From: Escherichia coli
GTDB lineage: Bacteria > Pseudomonadota > Gammaproteobacteria > Enterobacterales > Enterobacteriaceae
Assembly: GCF_003334255.1 (NCBI RefSeq)
Contig: NZ_QOWU01000014.1
Reading direction: 5' to 3' (one strand)
Length of the DNA: 64,000 bases
Part shown: positions 3,614 to 59,050 of the stretch, in pieces
Layout: the number at the start of each line of letters is the position of its first letter
Numbering within the stretch: the first letter of the stretch is position 1
Made by a program: the position numbers and the translations under genes
Notes under the pieces: generated by a model
The model's database searches: none
The model's input: the letters and a program-made list of their open reading frames with translations, nothing else
Told to the model about the DNA's origin: nothing

Positions 3614-6934
<3,321 letters not shown>

Positions 6935-13918: not shown

Positions 13919-14026
13919 ATATTTGGACAAAACGCAAACTGTGATCGATACTCAACTATGCACTAAATACGTCAAAATTCGTGCCGAAATTGCGCGTTCT
14001 GCGCGGAACACGTATACTTTCAGTGT

Positions 14027-14101
14027 TGACATAATACAGTGTGCTTTGCGGTTACCAGCCGCAGGCGACTGACGAAACCTCGCTCCGGCGGGGTTTTTTG
14101 T
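14027..14101 (+). ncRNA. istR: IstR-1 antitoxin sRNA (the longer IstR-2 would start ~65 nt upstream)
   Basis: …gttgacataatacagtgtgctttgcggttaccagccgcaggcgactgacgaaacctcgctccggcggggtttttt matches my recollection of IstR ending in its intrinsic terminator. 5' end is approximate. Confidence 0.65.
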
Positions 14102-30900: not shown

Positions 30901-30995
30901 TGGCGGAAGATCACAGGAGTCGAACCTGCCCGGGACCGCTGGCGGCCCCAACTGGATTTGAAGTCCAGCCGCCTCACCGGAGACGACGATCTTCC
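30901..30995 (-). tRNA. selC: tRNA-Sec (selenocysteine, UCA anticodon)
   Basis: Reverse complement of 30901..30995 is GGAAGATCGTCGTCTCCGGTGAGGCGGCTGGACTTCAAATCCAGTTGGGGCCGCCAGCGGTCCCGGGCAGGTTCGACTCCTGTGATCTTCCGCCA, recognised as E. coli selC. Confidence 0.9.
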
Positions 30996-50542: not shown

Positions 50543-50668
50543 AGACGTTCCTGTTTATAAAAGGAGAGGTGGAAGGATTATAGCCATCGATGCCTTGTCA
50601 GGATAGGAATAACCGCCGGAAGTCCGTATAATGCGCAGCCACATTTGTTTCAAGCCGGAGATTTCAAT

Positions 50669-51385
50669 ATGCGTCCAGCAGGCCGTAGCAATAATCAGGT
50701 GCGTCCCGTTACCCTGACTCGTAACTATACAAAACATGCAGAAGGCTCGGTGCTGGTCGAATTTGGCGATACCAAAGTGTTGTGTACCGCCTCTATTGAA
50801 GAAGGCGTGCCGCGCTTCCTGAAAGGTCAGGACCAGGGCTGGATCACCGCAGAGTACGGCATGCTGCCACGTTCTACCCACACCCGTAACGCTCGTGAAG
50901 CGGCGAAAGGTAAGCAGGGTGGACGCACAATGGAAATCCAGCGTCTGATCGCCCGTGCTCTTCGCGCGGCAGTAGATTTGAAAGCGCTGGGTGAGTTCAC
51001 CATTACGCTGGACTGCGACGTGCTTCAGGCTGATGGTGGCACGCGTACCGCGTCGATTACGGGTGCCTGCGTGGCGCTGGCAGATGCGCTACAGAAGCTG
51101 GTGGAAAACGGCAAGCTGAAAACCAACCCGATGAAAGGGATGGTAGCCGCAGTTTCTGTCGGTATTGTAAACGGTGAAGCAATTTGCGATCTGGAATACG
51201 TTGAAGACTCAGCCGCAGAGACCGACATGAACGTAGTGATGACCGAAGACGGGCGCATCATTGAAGTGCAGGGGACGGCAGAAGGCGAGCCGTTCACCCA
51301 TGAAGAGCTACTCACCTTGTTGGCGCTGGCCCGAGGGGGAATCGAATCCATTGTAGCGACGCAGAAGGCGGCGCTGGCAAACTGA
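50669..51385 (+). CDS. rph: Ribonuclease PH, full length
   Basis: ORF 50645..51385; start at [17 protein letters not shown]-terminus …[20 protein letters not shown] is complete. Confidence 0.9.
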
Positions 51386-51390
51386 TTTTT

Positions 51391-51418
51391 AAGGCGACTG
51401 ATGAGTCGCCTTTTTTTT
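51391..51418 (+). terminator. rph terminator / pyrE attenuator
   Basis: aaggcgactgatgagtcgcc hairpin followed by eight T, between the rph stop and the pyrE start. Confidence 0.7.
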
Positions 51419-51450
51419 GTCTGTAGAAAAGTAAGATGAGGAGCGAAGGC

Positions 51451-52098: not shown

Positions 52099-52124
52099 TC
52101 GCCGGATGAAAAGTCATCCGGCGT
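52099..52124. terminator. Bidirectional hairpin between convergent pyrE and slmA
   Basis: cgccggatgaaaagtcatccggcg perfect inverted repeat. Confidence 0.5.
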
Positions 52125-58679: not shown

Positions 58680-59050
58680 AGTAAATAGCTGACTTATGGA
58701 TGTGCTGGGGATTCTATGTATTTAGCTGTGGCTTTACCATTACTTTTCCCGTTTTTGACTTAAATAGCAATTTACCCGCCAATTCTTGCTGAACATCTAT
58801 ACTTTTTTTGTATTTTTATGCGATTCATTGATTTCTGCTGTACGTGCAGGAAGGAATCGCAGAGCAACAGTGAAAGAATATGGTTGCTAATGATTTTATT
58901 TGATTGATTTCTTTATTGAAAATCAACAATGTGCTTAAAAATCATTCGGGTCGGATTGCCGCGAAAGAAGTGATACACTAGCGCGTCAATATCAGTGCGG
59001 TATCAGTATTCAGGTAGCTGTTGAGCCTGGGGCGGTAGCGTGCTTTTTCT

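Follow-up and report, generated by a model that had tools for sequence, protein, structure and literature searches.

A probable wild-type rph-pyrE operon with an intact attenuator in a natural, non-K-12 lineage of Escherichia coli

The 64,000-nucleotide stretch of Escherichia coli DNA analyzed here (hereafter, the window) most probably stems from a natural E. coli lineage and carries the rph-pyrE operon in its wild-type (rph+) form. In this reading, to which we assign a probability of about 93% from comparisons of the sequence, rph and pyrE would share a transcript, and the intrinsic terminator within the 65-nt spacer between them would serve as the pyrE attenuator through a translation-coupled, UTP-sensitive mechanism. 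The rph gene immediately precedes pyrE on the same strand, the spacer occupying positions 51386-51450; within the spacer, a G+C-rich hairpin is followed by a run of T, and the in-frame rph stop codon lies within a ribosome footprint of the hairpin (Table 1). The arrangement is already known and represents textbook regulation in its normal state.

Table 1. Features of the rph-pyrE region and their positions in the window
Feature	Position	Strand	Basis
yicC-rph intergenic region, expected site of the rph-pyrE promoter(s)	50543..50668	+	126/126 nt identical to MG1655
rph, full-length RNase PH, 238 aa plus TGA	50669..51385	+	translation, profile matches, RefSeq
rph codon 55, GAC (Asp), GGC (Gly) in nearly all E. 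coli; rare G55D allele	50831..50833	+	exact 61-mer, alignments
G5 run; one G is lost here in rph-1 of K-12 MG1655	51335..51339	+	pairwise alignment, MG1655 translation
TAG triplet, out of frame in the window; in rph-1, read as an early stop 34 nt from the hairpin	51354..51356	+	equivalent TAG closes the MG1655 CDS
TGA stop of rph; 5 nt separate it from the first paired hairpin base downstream	51383..51385	+	sequence, translation
Attenuator hairpin, 9-bp stem (5 G-C pairs), GAUG loop	51391..51412	+	fold, terminator scan, identical to MG1655
T8 run, U-tract of the intrinsic terminator (attenuator)	51411..51418	+	sequence, terminator scan
GAGGAG, likely pyrE Shine-Dalgarno, 7 nt before ATG	51438..51443	+	sequence; function inferred
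pyrE, orotate phosphoribosyltransferase, 213 aa	51451..52092	+	TIGR00336, MG1655 comparison

Direct reading of the sequence places the rph start at ATG 50669-50671 and the stop at TGA 51383-51385, that is, 717 nt encoding 238 aa. The automatic list of open reading frames begins rph upstream of this ATG, at TTG 50645; the ATG start and the stop annotated in RefSeq for strain G1/2, the locus of which is 100% identical, map exactly onto 50669-51385. The product matches the RNase PH equivalog profile TIGR01966 with 378.6 bits (cutoff 141.5), over profile positions 1-235 of 236, and displays the two-domain RNase PH architecture, with Pfam RNase_PH (PF01138; residues 10-140, E = 1.1e-30) followed by RNase_PH_C (PF03725; residues 157-222, E = 1.3e-15). 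Among the solved RNase PH structures, that of P. aeruginosa (1R6L) aligns with the window protein over residues 2-237 (E = 4e-103). The C-terminus is full length, as had been proposed originally along with the C-terminal peptide, which was quoted correctly, and 238 aa is also the length of the product at 103 of 103 other Enterobacterales loci. Phosphorolytic 3'-5' exoribonuclease activity is predicted for this protein, with a small doubt arising from the rare G55D substitution discussed below.

For comparison with K-12, we aligned 911 nt of the window pairwise to the MG1655 reference (NC_000913.3, 3811500-3817500). The sole indel is in the G-run, which reads GGGGG in the window (51335-51339) and GGGG in MG1655 (alignment column 777). 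Because this one G is missing, the MG1655 rph frame shifts after ...ALARG, reads ESNPL and ends at TAG; accordingly, the MG1655 gene is annotated 'truncated RNase PH' and translates to 228 aa ending in ...ARGESNPL, with the stop codon 34 nt from the hairpin vs 5 nt in the window. The window and rph-1 of MG1655, W3110 and EMG2 thus have in common the locus and the G-run in which the mutation arises, and differ in the loss of one G, the length of the product and the distance of the stop from the hairpin. Neither the one-base deletion nor the 228-aa product ending in ...GESNPL, the hallmarks of rph-1, was found in the window, where G5 and the 238-aa product are kept; the alignment to K-12 rph that had been suggested as a check of the original prediction revealed no frameshift near the 3' end of the gene in the window.

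Apart from the G-run, rph differs from its MG1655 counterpart by 12 substitutions that result in four amino acid differences (positions 55, 138, 172 and 216), whereas the gene order, the 126-nt yicC-rph intergenic region, the rph stop codon, the 5-nt spacer, the hairpin, the T8 run, the leader and the PyrE protein are the same, without a single nucleotide difference in the intergenic region, the attenuator and the leader. At two of the four variable positions, it is MG1655 that departs from the rest: V138 of MG1655 is an outlier, with A138 in the window and in 103 of 103 Enterobacterales species loci (MG1655 rph is at 4364-5050, minus strand, of locus L001), and I216 of MG1655 recurs at just 1 of the 103 loci. 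By these sequence comparisons, the K-12 reference appears atypical at rph even apart from rph-1.

In three papers, rph-1 is described as a single-nucleotide frameshift that eliminates the activity of RNase PH and reduces the expression of pyrE, so that MG1655, W3110 and EMG2 are partly starved for pyrimidines (PMC3378859, PMC9997739, PMC5933015). Together with a fourth paper, these trace the effects to Jensen 1993 and Bonekamp 1984 (PMC9997739, PMC2784333, PMC5933015, PMC3378859), and the same four agree with the truncation and the reduced pyrE expression that the original prediction had stated for rph-1. That prediction had further taken the lack of rph-1 to mark the window as non-MG1655. The window is indeed not MG1655, but the absence of the frameshift alone does not exclude K-12 because C600, a K-12 strain, carries rph+ and has served in the transductional repair of rph-1 (PMC3378859); WG1 lacks rph-1 as well (PMC9997739), and strain CM13, one of the sampled full-length matches described below, combines K-12-type flanks with G5. 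What identifies the window as non-K-12, at the level of sequence, is about 30 SNPs (12 in rph and 18 in pyrE) along with a 25-kb match to natural isolates, the last 25 kb of the window being 100% identical to G6/7, G8 and B-1109. The absence of rph-1 from the window is only to be expected because rph-1 is specific to certain K-12 laboratory strains.

The frequency of the two forms was assessed in a database of 5,426 complete E. coli genomes. The exact K-12 rph-1 64-mer was detected in 167 of these, the two shown being K-12 MG1655 and J53. Across a spread sample of the ranking, all 36 of the 36 full-length non-K-12 matches span 65 nt rather than 64 and therefore keep the extra base, and a 91-nt segment encompassing the end of rph, the attenuator and the pyrE ATG is exactly identical in 4,561 of the 5,426 genomes. 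Taken together, these counts indicate that full-length rph followed by the attenuator is the norm of the species. Some variation was observed as well: the attenuator T-run consists of T7, T8 or T9 in different E. coli genomes (loci L123, L124 and L125), in strain 23CRST050, an IS200/IS605 tnpA element has inserted directly after the T-run and separates the attenuator from pyrE, and about 17 E. coli genomes cover the 91-nt query only partly.

Homopolymer runs are error-prone, so the G5 run could be a sequencing or assembly artefact, with the real strain possibly frameshifted. A public assembly with such a defect exists: in Kluyvera genomosp. 3 YDC799 (L070, CP022114.1), G5 is changed to G4 as in rph-1, about 114 nt upstream of pyrE (at 4240), and rph ends with ...ARGESNPL. 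This rph gene contains a second frameshift, near its 5' end, which speaks against a natural recurrence of an rph-1-like frameshift, a possibility that we considered and rejected; because both frameshifts are in the same gene, G4 in this assembly is probably a homopolymer error. For the window, an artefact is contradicted by ten independent complete genomes that are 100% identical to it over 1,541 bp, by the extra base in each of the sampled non-K-12 matches, and by the invariant length of RNase PH in the other species, so that the chance of an erroneous G5 is close to nil.

Turning to the attenuator downstream of this full-length rph, the sequence TTTTT at 51386-51390 separates the rph stop from the hairpin, which consists of the 5' arm AAGGCGACT (51391-51399), a GATG loop and the 3' arm AGTCGCCTT (51404-51412). 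The last two T of the 3' arm are at the same time the start of the T8 run at 51411-51418. The predicted folding energy of the hairpin is -14.2 kcal/mol vs -2.8 +/- 1.8 kcal/mol for shuffled sequences (z = -6.35), a value that none of the 200 shuffles reached, and the terminator scan also reports the hairpin, counting 9 pairs (5 G-C) and noting a T-rich tail. Two further claims made originally, namely, that the rph stop lies 5 nt before a hairpin at 51391..51418 and that the rph-pyrE attenuator is intact, agree with these data: the former is exact on direct reading, and for the latter, the stability of the fold is accompanied by identity to MG1655 at every base. A scan of the whole window with Rfam at gathering thresholds yielded no family at the attenuator; this blank is uninformative because no family appears to be curated for the rph-pyrE attenuator. 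Elsewhere in the window, the same scan identified the istR sRNA (13970-14099, plus strand), tRNA-Sec (selC; 30905-30995, minus strand) and a JUMPstart element (59004-59042, plus strand), the latter within the 25-kb stretch whose annotated genes include waa lipopolysaccharide-core genes.

Because the rph frame is intact, a ribosome can approach the hairpin to 5 nt, which the attenuation mechanism requires. A ribosome that follows the RNA polymerase closely through the end of rph would reach the TGA at 51383-51385 and, when stalled there, would be expected from its general footprint size to cover the 5' arm of the hairpin (51391-51399). If the polymerase is starved for UTP and the ribosome keeps pace with it, the 5' arm would be covered, the terminator could not fold, and transcription would enter pyrE. 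With plentiful UTP, the polymerase would outrun the ribosome, the hairpin and the U-tract would form, and transcription would stop before pyrE. In rph-1 strains, the ribosome would be released 34 nt upstream of the hairpin, which would make termination constitutively high.

The pyrBI attenuator of E. coli also involves UTP-sensitive pausing of the polymerase and a trailing ribosome that blocks the terminator hairpin. The logic is the same, but pyrBI relies on the translation of a dedicated short leader peptide, whereas in rph-pyrE, the upstream translated cistron is a full-size, functional gene. For the rph-pyrE attenuator itself, UTP sensitivity and coupling to translation were reportedly described in K-12 by Bonekamp et al. 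in 1984 and by Andersen, Poulsen and Jensen in 1992.

Four papers tie pyrE attenuation to the translation of the upstream cistron rph (PMC2784333, PMC5933015, PMC9997739, PMC3378859), and as relayed in one of them, read-through in the identical K-12 sequence rises as UTP falls and needs rph translation (via PMC2784333). In evolution experiments with MG1655, recurrent adaptive mutations move the rph stop back toward the hairpin (PMC2784333, PMC5933015). Given that the regulatory region of the window is identical, base for base, to the one studied experimentally in K-12, pyrE attenuation in the window strain is expected to be normal.

To examine the conservation of this arrangement, we collected 120 loci from different Enterobacterales species with a degenerate pattern for the first 12 codons of PyrE. 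One locus (L058) was left out as its upstream sequence was too short, and three further loci lacked an uninterrupted T5 run. An rph-like open reading frame ends just upstream of a hairpin and a T-run in every locus except L058. Over 116 loci, the distance from the rph stop to the first paired base is 2-10 nt, with 4 nt in 59 and 5 nt in 37 loci (96 of 116 at 4-5 nt), although these counts are not independent and the constant spacing partly reflects shared descent because the compared species are related. The stems in these 116 loci consist of 7-11 pairs, and the T-runs are 6-9 nt long, T8 being the commonest (78 of 116). By comparison, the rph-pyrE spacer ranges from 57 to 200 nt, and in the longer spacers that were read, the extra sequence is 3' of the terminator T-run. 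The stop stays close to the hairpin even where the remaining spacer has changed in length, in keeping with the prediction of the ribosome-occlusion model.

Substitutions in the stem were compared in a stem-anchored tabulation, which leans toward structure, instead of a MAFFT alignment because the loops vary between 3 and 6 nt in what are very short sequences. In this tabulation, the first outer stem pair is G-C in 103 loci, A-T in 10 and G-T in 6; the second outer pair is A-T in 92 and G-C in 24; and pair 4, in the core, is A-T in 111, G-T in 6 and G-C in 1. The stem positions are 96-100% paired, with compensatory substitutions across species; the evidence of covariation is limited to three or four pairs because the GCGAC/GTCGC core is nearly invariant. 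In Raoultella, Buttiauxella and Escherichia sp. ESNIH1 (L025, L041, L069, L075, L112 and others), insertions of 50-135 nt were observed downstream of the attenuator T-run, resulting in spacers of 110-200 nt. Some of these insertions start alike (...CGT[CT][AT]TAC/CTTCA...) and could represent a small repeat element or a second regulatory structure.

The hairpin resembles any rho-independent terminator and has no Rfam family, and might accordingly be an ordinary intrinsic terminator of rph, without coupling, with pyrE expressed from a promoter of its own. We consider this very improbable. The promoter consensus scan showed no promoter-like site between the hairpin and pyrE, and the distance between the stop and the hairpin is kept within 2-10 nt while the remaining spacer varies three-fold. 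Furthermore, the hairpin is identical to the K-12 element for which both attenuation and the polarity of rph-1 on pyrE are documented (PMC2784333, PMC9997739, PMC3378859), and the recurrence of mutations that shift the stop toward the hairpin in evolving MG1655 populations (PMC2784333, PMC5933015) argues in the same direction, that is, for translation-coupled attenuation of pyrE.

The pyrE product scores 240.6 bits against TIGR00336 (PyrE; cutoff 106.8) and is identical to MG1655 PyrE at 213 of 213 aa, with the 18 nucleotide differences in the gene all being synonymous. An AGGAG motif precedes pyrE in nearly all loci compared across the Enterobacterales. The divergent gene upstream of rph was identified as yicC by annotation and a profile match, and the order of divergent yicC, rph, pyrE and convergent slmA is the same in MG1655 and G1/2. 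In the yicC-rph intergenic region, a TATAAT hexamer at 50627-50632 might serve as the -10 element of rph-pyrE; the promoter consensus scan upstream of rph found no match with two hexamers and nothing convincing. A further G+C-rich hairpin of 10 bp, CGCCGGATGA...TCATCCGGCG at 52100-52123, is located where pyrE and slmA converge; it receives a terminator score on the minus strand and probably works in both directions as a terminator shared by the two genes.

At codon 55, rph of the window differs from nearly all E. coli by the G55D substitution. An exact 61-mer with this allele was detected in 10 of the 5,426 genomes, the same ten that are 100% identical to the 1,541-nt query, whereas Gly55 is present at all 103 of the loci from other Enterobacterales species as well as in the solved RNase PH of P. 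aeruginosa, B. subtilis, M. tuberculosis and B. anthracis (the four alignments shown). The near-identical relative LR-50 is not among the carriers, which suggests that the substitution is recent. Thus, rph could be full length and its product nonetheless impaired, if G55D weakens the folding, assembly or activity of RNase PH; the description of rph as intact would then be overstated. The rarity of D55, the conservation of Gly55 and the suggested recency of the change are compatible with such impairment. However, reversion of D55 to G adds only 1.8 bits to the TIGR01966 score, so position 55 does not seem to be strongly constrained across the family, and the allele is maintained in human, pig, seawater and wastewater isolates. 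This persistence, together with the dispensability of RNase PH in the laboratory, evident from the growth of rph-1 strains, also weighs against impairment, which we regard as unlikely, if clearly less so than the alternatives considered above. A functional RNase PH defect due to G55D is correspondingly unlikely on the sequence evidence, and the substitution is probably mild.

Whether or not the enzyme is affected, G55D would leave attenuation unchanged because attenuation needs the translation of rph and not the activity of RNase PH. Slightly less probable still than impairment in general is that G55D makes the RNase PH of this lineage a natural hypomorph or a variant with altered assembly. 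If true, RNase PH function would be reduced in a second way, independent of rph-1 and, in contrast to it, without any effect on pyrE attenuation.

The window thus comes from a natural, non-K-12 E. coli in which pyrimidine regulation should be normal. Conceptually, this adds nothing new to the known operon; the comparison of about 116 species provides clean comparative support for the classical ribosome-occlusion model, and the rph-1 defect emerges as an artefact of K-12 laboratory strains rather than a property of the species E. coli.
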